Positions 2,235-11,736 of a stretch of DNA of 24,856 bases are shown here, piece after piece. The first letter of the stretch is position 1; each line of letters begins with the position of its first letter. The translations under genes and the position numbers were made by a program. Location of the stretch: contig JAPDJO010000053.1 in NCBI GenBank assembly GCA_029259115.1, forward strand, positions 1-24,856, read 5' to 3'. Source of the DNA: Thermoplasmatota archaeon. Lineage in GTDB: Archaea > Thermoplasmatota > E2 > DHVEG-1 > B18-G2. The notes below the pieces were generated by a model that was not told the origin of the DNA, made no database searches, and saw nothing but the letters and a program-made list of their open reading frames with translations.

Positions 2235-3341
2235 TCAAAGATTTATAAATTTACCATTCTTGTAAATCAGTTCTCCATCCGCATATACCTCTCCATCCTT
2301 TCTCATATCCAGAACCATATCCCAATGCAGACCAGATTTGTTCTTGCTTCCAGTCTCAGGATATCCACTTCCTACAGCGATATGTATCGTTCCTCCTATC
2401 TTCTCATCGAATAGAGTATTGTTCGTGTATTTTTTGATCGCATAGTTTGTTCCAAATGAAAACTCGCCTATTCTTGATGCACCTTTATCCATTGATAACA
2501 TGGATTTGAGGAACTTCTCTCCTTTAGATGCCTTCGCTTTAACTACCCTCCCCCTTTTGAACTCCAGATATATATCTCTCACCTCTCTACCTCCATGGAA
2601 CGATGGAAAGCTATAAGTTATATATCCGTTCGCTGAATTCTCTATCGGACCAGTAAAAACTTCTCCATCTGGAAAATTCTCTTTTCCATGGCAGTTTATC
2701 CACTTTCTTCCTTCCACAGATAGTGTCAAATCTGTATCCTTTGCTACTATCCTGAGTTTCTTTTTACCAGATAAAAGCCTGACTATCTTATCCTGCCATT
2801 CCTTGATACCCTTCCATATCTTCATCGGATCTCTTTTATCAACATATCCTGCCTTGAAAACAAATTCCTCATACTCCTCTAGAGACATATCCGCATCTTG
2901 GGCGGCGGCAGGCGTAGGGTATTGAGTTAGACACCATCTCAATTCCTTCTTGGCAGCTCTGTTTAGAAATATCCTGTGGATCTTCTCGGTCGCTGCACTT
3001 CTTATTGCCTGCTTTTTTGGATCAATATTGCTGAGGTATTTTGTGTTCTTTGGACCCAACACCGTTAACCTTGCATCAATCTTCTTGATTTCAAATTCTG
3101 CTAATGGAGAAACGAATTTCAGTTGCTCCTCGCTCGCAAATTTGTAATAAATCTCATTGAAATCCTCGTCATATATCCTCACATAAGGGTAAGCACCTAA
3201 CTTTAAGGCGTGTTTGTATACCTCTTTCAATAGAGGGATAGTGAGTTCACTCCCGCTTATCAGGAAAAGATCTCCTTTTTTTATCTCTAGAGAGTACTCG
3301 ACAAGTACTTTAGCTAATCTTTCAAGTCTTATATCTTTCAT
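2235..3341 (-). CDS. Aminopeptidase, M29 family (AmpS/AmpT-like thermophilic metalloprotease)
   Basis: Motifs LAKVLVEYSL, NFPDGEVFTGP, IGEFSFGTN, LFDEKIGGTIHIAVG and SGLHWDMV. Confidence 0.93.
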   Translation of the reverse strand: MKDIRLERLAKVLVEYSLEIKKGDLFLISGSELTIPLLKEVYKHALKLGAYPYVRIYDEDFNEIYYKFASEEQLKFVSPLAEFEIKKIDARLTVLGPKNTKYLSNIDPKKQAIRSAATEKIHRIFLNRAAKKELRWCLTQYPTPAAAQDADMSLEEYEEFVFKAGYVDKRDPMKIWKGIKEWQDKIVRLLSGKKKLRIVAKDTDLTLSVEGRKWINCHGKENFPDGEVFTGPIENSANGYITYSFPSFHGGREVRDIYLEFKRGRVVKAKASKGEKFLKSMLSMDKGASRIGEFSFGTNYAIKKYTNNTLFDEKIGGTIHIAVGSGYPETGSKNKSGLHWDMVLDMRKDGEVYADGELIYKNGKFINL

Positions 3342-3380: not shown

Positions 3381-4643
3381 CTACACATTCTCCCATTCTT
3401 TAAGGACGGACTTCCACTCAAAATATCCTATCTCAGGTATAGACTCCAGCTTTCTTATTATCCTTTCATATCCCTTCAGCAAGGTTCTGGTTCTAACTTT
3501 TGCTATGATATCACATTTTCCTGCAACCGCTGCTACTGATTCAACCCCTCTTATCTTCCATATTTTTTCGATGAGATCTGATATGCTCACGCCTGGTTTA
3601 GCTCTTATAAAGATGTATGCTGTGATCTGAGAGAGGGCAAACGATACTATTCCAAGAACAACTAGAATTATACCTATTATCTTTATGAGCCAGAGGACAG
3701 AGGATTGAGGTATGGGTATTGGAATGAAATGAGATATTACAAACGTTACAGGTATAGAGAATATTACTATCGAAGCTCTTACCGCTTCCGTGACACTAGC
3801 CTTACCCATACCTAGAGCTCTTATATAGAGGACGTAAGAGAAGAAGGTTATTCCCATAGATATCGCAACAAGCCAGAAAAAGTCTATAGACCCTTCCAAG
3901 CTTTTGGAGAAGTATGATGTTCCACTGATCCAGTCCTGTACAAGAATGAATATAGTTATAAATACGAGGGTAAAGAATACGTTCCATAACCTTATGTTTA
4001 TAGAATCATTCGTTTTACCATCCAACTTAAGTAGCTTAAGTTTCCTCTGATTTATAGAAAACAATACCCATCCCGGATTCACAACCAGAAACATCACAGC
4101 TAAAGGAACGATTTCTATCTCTCCAGATATGGATATAGAGCCAAGGATGGCTCCGAGGGTGACAATTACTGAGGATTGAATCTCTATCAACGTCGGCGCA
4201 TTCTTTTCAGCAATCATCTCCACCATAAGTAGATATAGAATTACAACTCTAAAGAATGGGATAACCGCAGACGGATCTGTCATGAGAGATAAAGCATAGA
4301 AGTATCCCACCGTTGTTATCGCATTGCCTGCACCTGCAAGCAGATGGTACTTTAGCTCTTCTTTCTTAATCATTTTAAGCCCATTGAAGGTCGGATCTAT
4401 GAAACTACCTAATCTTCTTCCTTTAACCTTAACCGAGAGAATCAAACTTATTATGAGTGAGATTACAAGACCCACAAAAAAAGCAGAAAATCCATATACC
4501 CAAGATACTTCATCTGGGGAGTAGAATTTGGACATCTCGGATGTGATTATCGCATCAAATCCTACTGTTATGGATGCAATTATAGAAGAGGAGATAGCTA
4601 CAGCATAGAATAGGTATTTCCTTCTCACTCTTATCGATATCAT
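3381..4643 (-). CDS. DMT/EamA-like 10-TM membrane protein with a C-terminal Lrp/AsnC ligand-binding (RAM) domain
   Basis: About ten hydrophobic segments in two EamA-like halves (GYFYALSL..PSAVIP; SYVLYIRALGMGKASV), followed by the soluble tail ITAYIFIRAKPG...IRGVESVAAVAGKCDIIAKV...LESIPEI, which matches the RAM pattern. Confidence 0.8.
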   Translation of the reverse strand: MISIRVRRKYLFYAVAISSSIIASITVGFDAIITSEMSKFYSPDEVSWVYGFSAFFVGLVISLIISLILSVKVKGRRLGSFIDPTFNGLKMIKKEELKYHLLAGAGNAITTVGYFYALSLMTDPSAVIPFFRVVILYLLMVEMIAEKNAPTLIEIQSSVIVTLGAILGSISISGEIEIVPLAVMFLVVNPGWVLFSINQRKLKLLKLDGKTNDSINIRLWNVFFTLVFITIFILVQDWISGTSYFSKSLEGSIDFFWLVAISMGITFFSYVLYIRALGMGKASVTEAVRASIVIFSIPVTFVISHFIPIPIPQSSVLWLIKIIGIILVVLGIVSFALSQITAYIFIRAKPGVSISDLIEKIWKIRGVESVAAVAGKCDIIAKVRTRTLLKGYERIIRKLESIPEIGYFEWKSVLKEWENV

Positions 4644-4879
4644 ATCGATATCTCTTTCTCAATAACATAAGTTGTTGTCTGCTTGACCCCCTCTATCAAT
4701 TGTAACTTATCTGTTAACTTCATGAGCTTTTCAAGATCATCGACTTTAACTTTTATTATCAAGTCAACATCTCCGGCAACGACAGATATATTTTCTACAT
4801 TCTCTATCTTCTTTGCCTCCTTTAAAATATTCTCAAGCTTCCCGACCCTTGCTCTCACTAGAATGTATGCCTTTATCAT
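4640..4879 (-). CDS. Stand-alone Lrp/AsnC ligand-binding (RAM) domain protein, no HTH
   Basis: MIKAYILVRA...VENISVVAGDVDLIIKV...IEGVKQTTTYVI. The ATG at 4879 follows a GGTGA SD-like motif. Its stop overlaps the next start (ATGA, 4640-4643). Confidence 0.88.
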   Translation of the reverse strand: MIKAYILVRARVGKLENILKEAKKIENVENISVVAGDVDLIIKVKVDDLEKLMKLTDKLQLIEGVKQTTTYVIEKEISI

Positions 4880-4918
4880 GGTTATCACCGAATTTTCGGG
4901 GGAGGAATGTAAAGTTAT

Positions 4919-5977
4919 TTATAAAGCTAACGGTACAATCTCTACCTCTCTGAACAGATCGAGAAATCTTTTAGCTATAAGCTCTGCTTTATTTTCTTCA
5001 ACATACCTCTTGGCATTCTTCTTAATCTCCTTTCTTAAATCTTCATCCTCTATAACTTCCACTATCTTTTCCCTGAGATCATCAACACCTCTGTATAGGA
5101 TAACAGGTTTTTCCTCTGGTAACATCTCAAAGTGTCTCGTGTCTGGGGCGATAGTTGGGATAAGAGAACCTATACACTGGCATAGCGTAGAGGATACGAC
5201 AACCTTGTTGGTATGCCCTTTGGGTAGTAAATGAATATCAGATGAGTGCAGATACCTATATACCTCGTCTGTACTTGCGATTCTCTCCTGCTTCTGCTCT
5301 ATCCAATCTTCTTTGAATTTCAAAAGACCATCTGATCTGATTATTTTGTACACAAAATCATGCCTATTTTTCAATCCTTTTAAGGCTTCAACAAAATCCT
5401 TGTACTCCTTTTCCGGCTGCCTGCCAAAGCTGAAAAACACGATACCATCTTCTCCAAATGTTCTATCCCCTTCCTTTACAGGATGACACGGATATGGAAC
5501 AACCCTTATATTTCCTCCATAACCATCCAACATTTCCTTATACCTCTCATCAAATACGGCAACAAAATCAAAAATACTCAAAGATGAGTACATCATCTCT
5601 TCTTTCGACCCTTCATGCACGACAATCCCTACTTTTACGCCATCCTTTTTCACTTCCTTGACCAACTTTTCAACATCTTTATATGGTATACTTGTGTACG
5701 ACTCAACGAGCAGAACATCAAAATTTTCTCCCCGTATCTTATCAAAATCTATGTATCCTCCACTCATCGTATCTGGGTTCAACTCGTTGTAACATCTAAT
5801 GACAAAATCCTCATCCTCTCTGATTATCCTATGATGCCACCATTTGTCTGCGCTCTTTATGTATGGGGCAAATATCAGGACATCGTTTCCTTTTTTCATG
5901 AACTCTTCTGTAATCATCTCCGCATGCATCGATACGCCGCAGGTAGCGTTCCATCTAGTGATTATGCCTATCTTCAT
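4919..5977 (-). CDS. GT-B (GT4-like) glycosyltransferase; probable homolog of GDP-mannose:di-myo-inositol-phosphate beta-1,2-mannosyltransferase (MDIP synthase)
   Basis: The N-terminus MKIGIITRWNATCGVSMHAE and motifs FFSFGRQP, IIRSDG and SDIHLLPKGHTNKVVVSSTL match my recollection of Thermotoga maritima TM0359. The glycosyltransferase call is firm; the substrate call is from memory and not searched. Confidence 0.75.
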   Translation of the reverse strand: MKIGIITRWNATCGVSMHAEMITEEFMKKGNDVLIFAPYIKSADKWWHHRIIREDEDFVIRCYNELNPDTMSGGYIDFDKIRGENFDVLLVESYTSIPYKDVEKLVKEVKKDGVKVGIVVHEGSKEEMMYSSLSIFDFVAVFDERYKEMLDGYGGNIRVVPYPCHPVKEGDRTFGEDGIVFFSFGRQPEKEYKDFVEALKGLKNRHDFVYKIIRSDGLLKFKEDWIEQKQERIASTDEVYRYLHSSDIHLLPKGHTNKVVVSSTLCQCIGSLIPTIAPDTRHFEMLPEEKPVILYRGVDDLREKIVEVIEDEDLRKEIKKNAKRYVEENKAELIAKRFLDLFREVEIVPLAL

Positions 5978-6010
5978 TTTACCACCCCCGGAAGTAGATT
6001 CTGTAATAAC

Positions 6011-6042
6011 TTATATAATAACGTGAGAGGAAAATTTTTTAA
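6011..6042. promoter_or_regulatory. Divergent archaeal promoter region between the glycosyltransferase and GH130 genes
   Basis: Palindromic TTATATAA at 6011-6018, a second purine-run + TTTTTTAA element at about 6027-6042, and an SD-like GGGGGTGGT before the minus-strand ATG at 5977. Confidence 0.5.
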
Positions 6043-6066
6043 TTTTACGCGAGATTGTTAACCTAG

Positions 6067-7083
6067 ATGTTTAATTGCATGGAAGGGGATGGGAGATTTC
6101 ATAGAGAGAATAGGACAGTTGATATAGTGAGAAGGTTGGGGGTTATCACCCCTAAAAACATCAAATTAAAGAGACATCCGATGGATAAACCTGTATCTGT
6201 ATTCAATCCTTCTTTCATATTCAGAGAGGATAATATCGTTATATATGCTAGAACTATACTTGGATATTTCACCTATGCAAGTGTCATTTCTGAGGTATCT
6301 GTACCTATCGAGAACATCAAAGATATATCAAAAAGAGAATATTTAGCTGAGATAAAGATTTTCCCAGATAATAGATACGATGTATGGGGAGTTGAAGATC
6401 CAAGAATCTGTGAGATAGATGGAAAGATATTTATAACATACTGTGGAAGAACAGTCAACTATTTCAACCAATCGGTGTGGGTGGAGAGGACATTACCTGT
6501 TACAGCGATTCACAATTCTGGATGGAAGAAGATATGTGTGTATAGACTACCAAAAGAATTGAGAGGATTCGTCATAAGCGATAAGGATGCTTTTCTTGTA
6601 AAAACAAAAAAGAGATATAAATTATTCCATAGACTACATATGAAAGATAATAACTTCTACCTTGTTATTAGTGATATAGACGATGACATCGAGCACAATA
6701 ATCTTAGAGAAATAGAAGTAAAGAATACATCTTTAGCTTTAAAACCAGCAGACTTTGAGGAGAAAATAGGATGGAGTACACCTCCCGTAAAGGTAGGTAA
6801 GTATCTGATATTGCTTCTCCATGGTGTAGACAAGGACATGAAAAGATACAGAATCTTTGCTATAGCCATGGATGAAAAACTAAGAATAAAAGCTGTAACT
6901 CCATATTATATAATGGAGCCAAAGGAGATCTATGAGATATACGGTGATAGACCATATGCGATATTTCCATGCGGCGCACAGAAAATAGATGATAAGATAT
7001 TGATATCTTACGGAGCCGCAGATTCTGTTTTAGCTTTTGGAGAGATAGAGATAGATGAGCTTCTTTCTATGCTAAATCTTTAG
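6067..7083 (+). CDS. Glycoside hydrolase family 130 protein (beta-mannoside phosphorylase-like, five-bladed propeller)
   Basis: Motifs VFNP, GVEDPRI, DKDAFL, LFHR, KIGWSTPP, LHGV, EPKEIYEIYGDRPYAIFPCGA and SYGAADS. Confidence 0.88.
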   Translation: MFNCMEGDGRFHRENRTVDIVRRLGVITPKNIKLKRHPMDKPVSVFNPSFIFREDNIVIYARTILGYFTYASVISEVSVPIENIKDISKREYLAEIKIFPDNRYDVWGVEDPRICEIDGKIFITYCGRTVNYFNQSVWVERTLPVTAIHNSGWKKICVYRLPKELRGFVISDKDAFLVKTKKRYKLFHRLHMKDNNFYLVISDIDDDIEHNNLREIEVKNTSLALKPADFEEKIGWSTPPVKVGKYLILLLHGVDKDMKRYRIFAIAMDEKLRIKAVTPYYIMEPKEIYEIYGDRPYAIFPCGAQKIDDKILISYGAADSVLAFGEIEIDELLSMLNL

Positions 7084-7154
7084 ATGCTCACTTTTTCAAT
7101 CTCCTGTCGCCGAATGATAAGTATTAATACCATTAACATATAGGGGTTTTGCAA

Positions 7155-8438
7155 ATGACCCAGATATCGGAAGCGAAGAAGGGAATAATAACTGAACAGA
7201 TTAAAGAAGTCGCTAAATCAGAGAAGATAGATGTAGAGATCATCAGGAAAAGGGTTGCTGAGGGAAAGATAGTTATCCCTTTCAATCCCATACATTCTCC
7301 GAAAGCTCTTGGCATAGGAAAAGGACTGAGAGTTAAGGTTAATGCAAACATTGGAACTTCTAGGGAGCATTGCAATCTTGATGAAGAAGTGGAGAAGGCT
7401 AGGACAGCTTTAAAATATGGAGCACATGCGGTAATGGATCTTTCCACGGGAGGAGATCTGGATAAGATAAGAGAAACTCTACTCAAGGTAGTTGATGTAC
7501 CATTTGGAACTGTACCCATCTATCAGGCTGCTGTCGAGGCGATAGACAAGTATGGAAGCATAGTTGATATGAGCGAAGATGATATGTTCAACGCTTTTGA
7601 ACATCAAGCAAAACAAGGCGTAGACTTTGCGGTAGCCCATGTAGGCGTTACCAGAGAAAGCGTCGAGAGATTGAAGAGGCAAAAGAGAATGATACCGATG
7701 GTATCCAGAGGCGGAGCCTTCCATATGGCATGGATCCTTCATAACCAGTCTGAAAATCCTCTCTACAAGAACTTTGATTATCTACTAGAGATAGCAAAGG
7801 AATATGATCTGACCTTGAGTCTTGGAGATGGTATGCGTTCTGGAGCGATCTATGATTCAAACGACAGGGCAAAGTTTCAGGAACTTTTGATAATAGGAGA
7901 GTTAGTTGAGAGATGTAGAGAAAAAGGAGTGCAATGCATGGTTGAGGGACCAGGCCATATGCCCCTGAATCACATAGAATCAAATATCAAGGTCATGAAA
8001 ACCGTAACAAGAGAGGCACCATATTTTGTTTTAGGTCCTCTTGTTACTGATATAGCTCCAGGATATGATCACCTTGTTGCTGGTATAGGGGGAGCAATAG
8101 CAGGCTACTACGGTGCAGATTTCTTATGCTATGTAACTCCAGCTGAGCATCTCTCCCTACCAAGTGTTGAAGATGTTAAAGAGGGGGTAATTGCTGCAAG
8201 GATAGCCGCTCATGCTGCAGACATTGCTAGAGGGATAGATGTGGATATTGATAATGAATTTAGCAAAGCTAGGGACAATTTAAACTGGAAAAAGATGTTC
8301 GATCTCGCTATTGATCCAGAAAAGGCAAAGACTTATAGAGAAAAAAACCCTCCAATGGAAGATCCGTCAACATGTACGATGTGTGGCAAACTCTGTGCCA
8401 TAAAAATAGTGAATAAATATCTTAGAGAAAAGGAATAG
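7155..8438 (+). CDS. thiC: Phosphomethylpyrimidine synthase ThiC (short archaeal type; a BzaA/B/F paralog is not excluded)
   Basis: Motifs [55 protein letters not shown] and the C-terminal Fe-S motif CTMCGKLC. The ATG at 7155 after AGGGG is preferred to the TTG at 7149. Confidence 0.88.
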
Positions 8439-10494: not shown

Positions 10495-10512
10495 CATCTG
10501 TTGAGGATAGCT

Positions 10513-11736
10513 ATGAATAGAAGGCTTACGACTTTGATAGTTATTCTCATAACACTAACATCCTTCCTGCCCGGATGCACAAAATATAAATATACTCCAC
10601 CGAAGGCAGATGAAACAGGCTGGAGCGAGGAAGGAGTTGAAGAATTATCAAGAGCAATTAATAGATTTGCCATCAATCTGTATCTGAATATATCTGATGG
10701 GAGGAATATCTTCTTTTCACCATACAGTATATTCTCGGCTTTTGCTCTGCTCTATGAGGGAGCTCGCGGAGATACAGCTAGAGAACTGGAGAAAGTTTTC
10801 TTTTTTCCAAATGATCCAACTGTAAGAAGACCAAACTTTGCCAGAATCTACAACTTGATAAACAATAACAGCAGATATTTCGATCTTCATACTGCAAACG
10901 CTTTGTGGATACAGAAGAATTATCCTATATTACAAGACTATCTGCAAGTGATCGAGACATATTATGGTGGAGAAGCTTTCAATGTGGATTTTTCTGGAGC
11001 TACTGAACAAACCAGAAAGCTAATCAATGAATGGATAGAACATCAGACTAACTATACCATCAAAAACTTCTTCCCTCCTAACTCGATAGATCCATTAACA
11101 AGATTGGTTTTAACTAATGCTATCTACTTCAAAGGAATATGGTTAAAACAGTTTGATGAAAATGAGACAACGGAAGATATTTTCTGGATCGATAACGATA
11201 CAACCGTAAAAATTCAGATGATGAAGGTCTATGACTTCTTCAATTATACAGAGACAGATGATCTTCAGATTATCGAACTACCATACAAAGGTAAAAGAAT
11301 ATGTATGCTTGTTCTCCTTCCAAAGAGAAATATAGAGCAAATAGAAGATAATCTCACAATTAATAGTCTGAACAGCTGGGTGGAAAATCTAACAGAACAG
11401 AGAATCGAGGTTTACTTACCAAAGATCAACTTAAGTACGGAATATTCTTTGAAAGAGATCTTAGAAAGTATGGGTCTTTACTCGATATTTTGTCCTGGAG
11501 AGGCTGACTTCTCTGGAATAGACGGTACAAAGAACCTCTTTGTTGATGAGGCAATCCATAAGGCTTTTATTAAGATAGATGAAAAAGGAACAGAGGCATC
11601 TGCTGCTACTGGAATAATAATGCCTATATCTCTTCCTACAATTTTCCGAGCAAATCATCCATTTATATTCTTGATCCTTGACAAAGAAACAGATATCATA
11701 CTATTCATGGGAAAAATTGTAAATCCAGCGGAATAG
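10513..11736 (+). CDS. Serpin (serine protease inhibitor, I4), predicted lipoprotein
   Basis: Motifs NIFFSPYSI, LVLTNAIYFKGIW, LPYKG, hinge EKGTEASAAT and FRANHPFIFLI. The N-terminal MNRR + hydrophobic stretch ends in FLPGC. The ATG at 10513 is preferred to the TTG at 10501. Confidence 0.95.
   Translation: MNRRLTTLIVILITLTSFLPGCTKYKYTPPKADETGWSEEGVEELSRAINRFAINLYLNISDGRNIFFSPYSIFSAFALLYEGARGDTARELEKVFFFPNDPTVRRPNFARIYNLINNNSRYFDLHTANALWIQKNYPILQDYLQVIETYYGGEAFNVDFSGATEQTRKLINEWIEHQTNYTIKNFFPPNSIDPLTRLVLTNAIYFKGIWLKQFDENETTEDIFWIDNDTTVKIQMMKVYDFFNYTETDDLQIIELPYKGKRICMLVLLPKRNIEQIEDNLTINSLNSWVENLTEQRIEVYLPKINLSTEYSLKEILESMGLYSIFCPGEADFSGIDGTKNLFVDEAIHKAFIKIDEKGTEASAATGIIMPISLPTIFRANHPFIFLILDKETDIILFMGKIVNPAE

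Follow-up and report, generated by a model that had tools for sequence, protein, structure and literature searches.

Mannosyl-di-myo-inositol phosphate (mannosyl-DIP, or MDIP) is reportedly made in Thermotoga maritima by TM0359, the MDIP synthase that Rodrigues et al. are said to have described in 2009 (J Bacteriol 191:6105) and that mannosylates di-myo-inositol phosphate (DIP) with GDP-mannose as the donor. To our knowledge, it is not known how hyperthermophiles dispose of inositol-phosphate solutes or recycle them after stress. Our literature search, over titles and the first parts of abstracts, turned up neither a mannosyl-DIP-degrading enzyme nor a paper that ties glycoside hydrolase family GH130 to this compound. 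Here we analyze a stretch of 24,856 nucleotides from a Thermoplasmatota archaeon (contig JAPDJO010000053.1 of assembly GCA_029259115.1; the window), in which a glycosyltransferase (GT) gene and a GH130 gene stand head to head. Our best reading, still unproven and with a probability of about one half, is that the two genes are a mobile cassette that makes a mannosylated DIP-type solute and recycles it by phosphorolysis.

MDIP synthase has been reported in the Aquificales as well as in the Thermotogales, and the Thermotoga enzyme is called "unrelated to known glycosyltransferases," both according to an excerpt of PMC3124967. For GH130, an excerpt of PMC7660257 attributes phosphorolysis to a proton-donor Asp together with a phosphate-binding Arg and His in proteins that have no signal peptide, and beta-1,2 specificity to a Glu/Lys pair at the positions of Y103 and R150 of UhgbMP. 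Weak transferase activity with GDP-mannose as the donor is described for some beta-1,2 GH130 enzymes (excerpt of PMC12814180).

The GT and GH130 genes form a conserved pair

The GT gene (positions 4919-5977, minus strand) encodes 352 amino acids and the GH130 gene (6067-7083, plus strand) encodes 338. In a scan of prokaryotes with each species represented by a single genome, 142 places were confirmed for the GT, and the best 80 of these were fetched with their flanks. Two taxon samples of 151 genomes each were added, one drawn from the window's class and the other from the phylum to which an Aquifex-labeled locus belongs. Below, L and G numbers denote loci and genomes, G000 being the window's genome (94 contigs, 1.40 Mb); the GT and GH130 proteins carry the labels P0003 and P0004.

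A GH130 ortholog with 41-71% identity to that of the window is present in 47 of the 80 GT loci, which come from genomes other than the window's. It lies within 400 bp of the GT in 43 loci, in four arrangements (34 pairs are convergent, 4 divergent, and 5 co-directional), and four further pairs diverge at a distance of 1.2-4.8 kb. When 852 neighboring open reading frames (ORFs) were clustered, GH130 was the only broadly recurrent neighbor of the GT, with 48 loci versus 11 for the next. The 33 genomes in which no GH130 stands beside the GT contain a strong ortholog elsewhere in 23 cases, a weak match in 2, and none in 8; overall, 70 of the 80 GT genomes have the ortholog.

Both taxon samples revealed a close association of the two genes. 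The GT occurs in 5 of the 151 genomes of the window's class and the GH130 ortholog in 4, each of which also has the GT, adjacent to GH130 and divergent from it; in the Aquifex-type sample, the GT occurs in 14 of 151 genomes and the GH130 in 13, every one of them a GT holder. No genome in either sample carried the GH130 clade without the GT. Because adjacency is kept across many phyla and co-occurrence is nearly strict, these comparisons support a functional link between the GT and GH130. The pairwise identities of the two proteins are also correlated over 43 loci (mirror-tree r of 0.85, reached by 0 of 999 permutations). We give this correlation no weight, because both genes could follow the relatedness of their organisms.

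In the fifth GT holder of the class, G189, a distant, second-tier relative of the GT (E-value, 5e-52) lies 18 nt from a distant GH130 (29% identity) on the same strand, so that the partnership is wider than the core family. A further GT copy of this genome contains in-frame TAG and TAA stops; these observations concern C125:1388-3174 and C161:3851-5384.

Homologs of the GT number 183 at an E-value of <=0.001 in a 90%-clustered protein collection and come from thermophilic archaea and bacteria. Those with names belong to Ferroglobus placidus, Archaeoglobus profundus, Aquifex, Methermicoccus, Thermoplasmata, Hydrothermarchaeota, and Bathyarchaeota, and the cultured organisms with the gene include A. 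profundus, F. placidus, and Aquifex aeolicus. The GT-GH130 pair is best read, although this is unproven, as a horizontally spread cassette of thermophiles that moves as a unit.

In the window, the two genes diverge from an 89-nt intergenic region (5978-6066) with A/T-rich, TATA-like blocks. A ribosome-binding-like site, GGGGGTGG, precedes the GT start, and alignment with four other divergent pairs (L007-L010) showed that the block AAAATTAAAAAATTTT and a GGTG before the GT start are conserved. Parts of this region may act as promoters.

The GT is a GT-B protein with inositol-phosphate-using structural relatives

The GT matches Pfam Glyco_trans_1_2 weakly (30.9 bits; cutoff, 25). Its structure model is confident (pLDDT of 92.9, pTM of 0.90) and has a GT-B fold, for which the top Foldseek matches, with a probability of 1.00, were PglA, BshA, MshA, PimA, and glycogen synthase. 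The predicted fold, these matches, and the Pfam domain all assign the protein to the GT-B, GT4-like enzymes. The GT belongs to a distinct family within this group, in which an N-terminal RWxATCG motif is invariant; as judged by eye, the stretch with the usual GT4 Glu-x7-Glu is replaced. Other searches gave no functional lead: with the GT as the query at an E-value of <=1, the PDB sequence search returned two chance-level rows only, and the ESM Atlas look-up returned generic GT1/GT4 clusters only. Ten clusters of second-tier relatives, from Thermoplasmata, Bathyarchaeota, Bacteroidota, and Hecatella, are mostly annotated as "hypothetical protein"; none of the 10 has a functional name and none is from Thermotoga.

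Among the top matches, PimA has the highest TM-score to the GT model (0.76; rmsd, 4.0), and MshA reaches 0.70. Both share the GT-B fold with the GT, although sequence identity is only 13-15%. According to its PDB title, PimA is a GDP-mannose-using enzyme. As general background, PimA mannosylates the 2-OH group of inositol, and the acceptor of MshA is inositol-1-phosphate. A DIP-type acceptor would fit the GT, because PimA and MshA both use inositol-phosphate acceptors. We propose that the GT is a mannosyltransferase acting on DIP or a close relative, an assignment made by genomic context and not by homology.

The GH130 clade has the residues of beta-1,2-mannoside phosphorylases

The GH130 protein is a clear member of PF04041, matching profile positions 3-318 of 320 (E-value, 1.1e-87; 294.5 bits at a cutoff of 26). 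Its closest solved relatives are a beta-1,2-mannobiose phosphorylase (7fip), matched with an E-value of 1.1e-15, or 1.1e-24 when the clade profile was used, and a 1,2-beta-oligomannan phosphorylase. The NCBIfam BMBP model scores 77.8 bits versus a cutoff of 450.

Six residues, E110, D111, K173, R189, H252, and D319, are invariant in 44 of 44 members of the clade. In the alignment with UhgbMP, E110-D111 correspond to Y103-D104, H252 to H231, and D319 to D304, and K173 and R189 were placed through the KDA and FHR motifs shared with 7fip, which would make K173 the equivalent of UhgbMP R150. The protein thus has the residues that distinguish GH130 phosphorylases from hydrolases (D111, R189, and H252) and, on this alignment, the E110/K173 pair of the beta-1,2-specific enzymes; no signal peptide was evident by eye. 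This pattern is the one expected of the beta-1,2-mannoside phosphorylase type that a reading of the DNA alone (the sequence-only reading) had named for this gene, and the clade is predicted to be a cytoplasmic enzyme with this activity.

Directly downstream of a GT homolog in a Methanophagales-labeled metagenome-assembled genome (MAG), a gene on the plus strand (L048:9069-12956) encodes a protein of 1295 amino acids, of which the last ~310 residues are a GH130 domain and the first ~970 have no Pfam match at 1e-5.

GT holders are nested within genomes that encode DIP synthesis

Contig C20 of the window's genome encodes a 435-amino-acid protein with NTP_transferase and CDP-OH_P_transf domains next to MIPS (myo-inositol-1-phosphate synthase). 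Of the NCBIfam models, NF041135 for the bifunctional IPCT/DIPPS fits it best (E-value, 9.8e-96), with 321 bits and hence below the model's Thermococcales-tuned cutoff of 580. Because an IPCT/DIPPS-type protein adjoins MIPS, DIP synthesis is, by gene content, present in this genome, as the sequence-only reading had presupposed.

The same holds for most genomes with the GT. IPCT/DIPPS was found at an E-value of <=1e-30 in 63 of the 80, with both domains in 54 and as a partial match in 9. In the class sample, 25 of 151 genomes have a both-domain IPCT/DIPPS, including 4 of the 5 GT holders, and the fifth holder matches over residues 1-328. In the Aquifex-type sample, DIPPS is likewise present in 25 of 151 genomes and in 12 of the 14 GT holders. 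The pattern is nested: the holders of GH130 are about the same genomes as those of the GT, and GT holders lie within DIPPS holders.

The genes are also physically clustered in three other genomes. In L078, an Actinobacteria-labeled MAG, GH130 and the GT run in one direction toward IPCT/DIPPS and MIPS, which follow on the opposite strand; in L151, IPCT/DIPPS lies 87 nt upstream of the GH130 ortholog on the same strand; and in L073 the GT is ~4 kb from IPCT, DIPPS, and MIPS. Genes of mannose metabolism stand near the GT as well, namely type I phosphomannose isomerase (PMI) in 10 loci and a ManC-type GDP-mannose pyrophosphorylase in 5. Just upstream of the L078 cluster (L078:5585-6373) there is a gene with a helix-turn-helix and a SocA/Panacea antitoxin-like region.

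A proposed cycle and the evidence that weighs against it

We hypothesize that, under stress, the GT would use GDP-mannose to mannosylate DIP or a closely related inositol-phosphate solute. GH130 would use inorganic phosphate to remove the beta-1,2-linked mannose, which would yield alpha-mannose-1-phosphate and the acceptor, and once stress eases, GDP-mannose pyrophosphorylase could activate the freed sugar again, or PMM and PMI could channel it into catabolism. Why would the two genes then lie on opposite strands? Such a layout would allow the two opposed activities to be controlled separately, which fits the data because 38 of the 43 adjacent pairs are on opposite strands. We infer the donor, the acceptor, the anomeric configuration, and the direction of flux of this cycle; since nothing ties the GT to the one characterized MDIP synthase, its reaction is assigned by context and not by homology, and this counts against our reading.

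A broader version of the proposal is tentative, and we would sooner expect it to need revision than to stand as a whole. It holds that gene transfer has carried a mobile two-gene "mannosyl-DIP cycle" into archaeal and bacterial hyperthermophiles from at least ten phylum-level groups, that the GT is a second synthase, which evolved independently of the Thermotoga enzyme, and that GH130 is the first known phosphorylase of a DIP-type thermoprotective solute, which would save the energy of the bond as mannose-1-phosphate, with the opposite strands serving to switch from building during heat stress to later recovery.

Several further observations also weigh against a cycle of this kind. The GH130 ortholog is missing from 10 of the 80 GT genomes, and adjacency is common and not universal, because 21 GT loci lack a neighboring GH130 even though their flanks measure 1.2 kb or more to the left and to the right. 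The nesting of GT holders within DIPPS holders could reflect ecology and not pathway dependence, as the DIP genes and the cassette are alike traits of hot habitats, which makes habitat a confounder, and kin genomes are not independent of each other. The closest structural relatives of the GT are, as far as is known, retaining GT4 enzymes (MshA carries this title in the PDB, and PimA retains configuration), and known MDIP is a beta-mannoside; if the GT retains configuration as its modeled fold may suggest, it would produce an alpha-mannoside, which GH130 is not expected to cleave.

The supply of mannose in the window's genome adds to these points. A candidate GDP-mannose pyrophosphorylase was found, and it scores 243 bits, under the curated 440. 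The sole phosphohexomutase of the genome is the archaeal GlmM equivalog, and neither type I PMI nor ManC had a tblastn match in it at 1e-5. A search of the genome with a PRK-like protein, encoded next to the GT elsewhere, gave no tblastn match at 1e-5 either. As an observation in its own right, the ORF adjoining the candidate pyrophosphorylase on contig C12 (L156:17-1492) encodes an NAD-dependent, bacterial-type DNA ligase, and the genome is otherwise Thermoplasmata-related; the estimated contamination of the assembly is 5.48%.

The GT also lacks a link to Thermotoga. No Thermotoga protein is among the GT matches listed. The sole Thermotogaceae-labeled GT locus, L046, encodes a protein that is 63% identical to Aquificota proteins, and the GT family occurs in only 2 of 184 genomes of the phylum of L046, one being the L046 MAG itself (E-value, 1.1e-160) and the other contributing a 51-amino-acid fragment. 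All other matches of the GT profile in the 184 genomes are to generic GT4 C-terminal regions, with E-values of >=1.5e-8. These comparisons do not show homology of the GT to TM0359, the type to which the sequence-only reading had assigned it, and as indirect evidence they argue against it; the GT may have come to the MDIP synthase reaction independently. We also considered the Thermotoga enzyme as an ortholog of the window's GH130 clade, which is neither supported nor excluded: the 184 genomes contain only distant GH130s and no ortholog of the clade (best match, 26% identity; E-value, 1.5e-29).

Other substrates and other roles for the pair

In the alternative that survives best, the two enzymes produce and turn over a beta-1,2-mannoside without a DIP moiety, with the GT priming the product and GH130 extending or trimming it. 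Such a product could be a short beta-1,2-oligomannan reserve like the mannogen of Leishmania, or else a mannoside carried by another small acceptor or by the precursor of a lipid or glycan. IPCT/DIPPS at an E-value of <=1e-30 is missing from 17 of the 80 GT genomes, several of them sizeable (G343, 1.8 Mb; G353, 2.3 Mb; G372, 2.4 Mb; and G410, 1.8 Mb), which speaks against the DIP-based cycle. Yet GT holders are nested within DIPPS holders in two independent samples. Neighboring genes can be counted for either side, PMI and ManC standing beside the GT in 15 loci and DIP genes in 2 GT loci and 1 GH130 locus, although these last three are the physical clusters with IPCT/DIPPS-MIPS. Known enzymes provide precedents: beta-1,2 GH130 enzymes can both phosphorolyze and weakly transfer from GDP-mannose, as stated in an excerpt of PMC12814180, and GH130-like enzymes serve mannogen turnover in Leishmania, according to an excerpt of PMC10913872. 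The structural neighbors of the GT, on the other hand, include enzymes with inositol-phosphate acceptors. We consider a non-DIP mannoside possible, yet we lean toward doubting it.

Compared with this, it is unlikely that GH130 is the true beta-1,2-mannosyl-DIP synthase, with GDP-mannose or mannose-1-phosphate as the donor, and that the GT adds an alpha-linked sugar, so that the pair would produce a doubly glycosylated DIP and there would be no make-and-break cycle. This arrangement would accommodate the resemblance of the GT to retaining GT4 enzymes, and it has a parallel in the GH130 "mannoside synthase" entries of the PDB (9eqq, 9erg, and 9erh). The glycosyltransferase activity of beta-1,2-type GH130 enzymes is real but described as weak for the phosphorylases (excerpt of PMC12814180), and the phosphate-binding Arg and His are invariant in the clade. 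A Thermotoga MDIP synthase "unrelated to known glycosyltransferases" (excerpt of PMC3124967) could have been a GH130 protein; however, the phylum of L046 has no ortholog of this clade (best match, 26% identity; E-value, 1.5e-29), a result that leaves the Thermotoga enzyme and the clade unconnected.

RAM and DMT-RAM form a separate unit

Downstream of the GT, on the same strand, lie a gene for a stand-alone RAM (Lrp/AsnC ligand-binding) protein (4640-4879, minus strand; 79 amino acids from an ATG, or 82 from a GTG at 4888) and, as the second gene of this unit, one for a membrane protein in which a DMT fold is followed by a RAM domain at the C terminus (3381-4643, minus strand; 420 amino acids). 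The sequence-only reading had joined the GT, RAM, and DMT-RAM genes into a tight operon and, with GH130, into a four-gene system. Much of what it described is there: since each has hundreds of homologs, all four ORFs are, by homology, real genes, and their domain labels stand in Pfam and in predicted folds. Likewise, we found the ATGA overlap of RAM and DMT-RAM ("tcat" at 4640-4643), the 39-nt gap between the GT and RAM (4880-4918), and the 89-nt divergent gap. The tight operon is an interpretation and not an observation. The RAM gene has a TATA-like element of its own, TTTATAA, at 4919-4925 on the minus strand, which shares bases with the stop codon of the GT and precedes the start of RAM by ~40 nt. 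TTTATAA is found at the same distance upstream of RAM in 12 of the 14 sequences compared, with or without the GT, and the variants are TTTATAT in L106 and TTAATATA in L116; across the class, the conserved element upstream of the pair is TAGATAnCTTTATAA-like. The TTTATAA at 4919-4925 is likely the promoter of the RAM/DMT-RAM unit itself.

The two proteins are what their labels say. RAM domain PF01037 matches the stand-alone protein in its 79- or 82-residue form with 50.4 bits (E-value, 2.1e-13) and residues 345-409 of the fusion with 27.4 bits, both above the cutoff of 25, and among relatives of the fusion 23 of 23 match it. In the 420-amino-acid protein, the membrane part had no Pfam match, to EamA or any other family, at an E-value of <=1; EamA matches 5 of its 23 relatives, at best with 2.3e-5. 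Its AlphaFold model (pLDDT of 81.9) has the DMT fold, with LicB (7paf) as a Foldseek match (E-value, 4e-6; TM-score, 0.76 on the target) and further matches to the triose-phosphate translocator, to nucleotide-sugar transporters, and to 5y78, 5oge, and 5i20. Archaeal stand-alone RAM proteins (PDB 2e1a, FFRP-DM1; PDB 2cvi, PHS023) share their fold with both the 79-amino-acid protein and the C terminus of the fusion, whereas the Lrp/AsnC regulators carry the domain on a DNA-binding domain and not, as here, on a DMT-fold transporter; no characterized example of such a fusion came up in this analysis.

The distribution of these genes does not follow that of the GT. The fusion is present in 108 of the 151 genomes of the class, and in 63 of 75 high-quality ones, whereas the GT is present in 5 of the 151. 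A RAM-only gene of 79-80 codons and DMT-RAM are a near-universal, single-copy pair of the class (loci L099-L127), abutting in 28 of 29 relatives' loci, and within flanks of 1.5 kb none of the 29 loci contains a GT or GH130. Conversely, RAM and DMT-RAM stand beside the GT in 1 of the 80 GT loci, L006 of the nearest relative, and unrelated housekeeping genes lie downstream of the GT in two other Thermoplasmata pairs (L007 and L010). The flanking genes point the same way. In the window, these are an M29 aminopeptidase (2235-3341, minus strand) and ThiC (7149-8438, plus strand), both assigned by Pfam. ThiC directly adjoins RAM, with nothing between, in L103, L105, L116, L123, and L125, and M29 follows DMT-RAM in 13 of the 29 relatives' loci, even with flanks of only 1.5 kb; because of these five and 13 loci, the ancestral order is, as far as gene order can tell, M29, DMT-RAM, and RAM on one strand and ThiC on the other, and the GT and GH130 were inserted between RAM and ThiC.

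Hence, the GT-GH130 core of the four-gene system recurs, in 47 of 80 loci, and the RAM and DMT-RAM genes are not part of it: they are a lineage-core pair with no specific tie to the cassette, and the region contains two independent two-gene units that merely abut. The sequence-only reading had itself named a lack of co-occurrence in other genomes as its refutation, and on this count the four-gene system fails and a two-gene system stands. A system in which the GT makes mannosyl-DIP, GH130 recycles it, and RAM-only and DMT-RAM sense and move the same solute is very improbable, since its one-strand adjacency with a 39-nt gap and an ATGA overlap, its repetition in L006, and an RNA-library contig over the GT, RAM, and the start of DMT-RAM (which shows no single transcript) are outweighed by the 1 of 80 GT loci, the 108 versus 5 of 151 class genomes, the 28 of 29 relatives' pairs without GT or GH130 (five of them adjoining ThiC), the TATA-like element kept with or without the GT, and G190, a genome of the same genus in which the GT-GH130 pair is present and no DMT-RAM match was found.

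The RAM-only and DMT-RAM proteins may nevertheless act together. A complex model of the RAM-only protein with the RAM domain of the fusion scored 0.84, compared with 0.00 for the best of three controls, and so passed a mark that 58 of the 80 complexes with solved structures reached, as did 2 of the 110 mismatched pairs; the runs agreed in >=97% of contacts, with a partner pLDDT of >=92. The two proteins probably form a ligand-gated transporter through RAM-RAM contacts, although the pass may mirror the likeness to solved RAM assemblies and not the binding of this particular pair.

In L006, identity to the window falls stepwise, from 99% for M29 and Lrp to 88% for DMT-RAM, 85% for RAM, and 74% for the GT. 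The GH130 of this nearest relative (78%; L149) is on a separate contig, where it lies beside ThiC. A TBP gene stands upstream of the GT in L006, and a PKD-domain gene stands upstream of GH130 in L149. These observations suggest recombination or replacement of the cassette. For annotation, the locus carries a caution: a transferred cassette that lands beside a conserved pair can mimic a four-gene operon.

Occurrence and other genes of the window

A total of 20 runs, which belong to 11 studies of hydrothermal-vent and marine-sediment metagenomes, contain the window or part of it. In one sample, the GT, GH130, RAM, and DMT-RAM genes are covered by contigs from two RNA libraries; one contig extends over 4526-5982 and another over 5163-6322, across the divergent gap. 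They record presence only, as such contigs neither show transcripts nor exclude carry-over of DNA, and uncovered parts carry no meaning. Elsewhere in the window there are genes for a full-length serpin (10501-11736; Pfam E-value, 8e-119) and a hemerythrin-PAS protein (5-940).

Significance and comparison with known systems

If the proposed cycle is correct, the question of how solutes are recycled becomes testable with two soluble enzymes from cultured organisms. GH130 would gain a new type of acceptor, an uncharacterized GT-B family would be defined, and mannosyl-DIP, which is of interest for stabilizing proteins, could be made enzymatically.

The reaction that we propose for the window's GT is the same as that of TM0359, and both proteins come from DIP-making hyperthermophiles. 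The two differ in that the GT is recognizably GT4-like, whereas TM0359 is described in an excerpt of PMC3124967 as unrelated to known glycosyltransferases. In addition, excerpts of the papers citing TM0359 mention no GH130 partner for it.

The characterized phosphorylases Teth514_1788/1789 and Lin0857 (PDB 7fip, 9fj8, and 5b0p) share with the window's GH130 the family, the proton-donor Asp, the phosphate-binding Arg and His, and the Glu/Lys pair. The window's clade is distant from them and has invariant residues of its own. Its conserved partner is the GT, in place of sugar-uptake genes. In genomes that encode DIP synthesis, the +1 subsite of the clade may take an inositol phosphate rather than mannose.

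The nearest parallel to the cycle as a whole is that of Leishmania mannogen, together with the dual-activity GH130 enzymes, in which a stress-related cytoplasmic beta-1,2-mannoside is likewise made from GDP-mannose and broken down by phosphorolysis (excerpts of PMC10913872 and PMC12814180). In Leishmania, a single family of GH130-like mannosyltransferases and phosphorylases (GT108) does both jobs, according to the excerpt of PMC10913872, whereas here synthesis would fall to a separate GT-B partner. Unlike in mannogen, the likely aglycone of the product made and recycled by the GT-GH130 pair is a small anionic solute.

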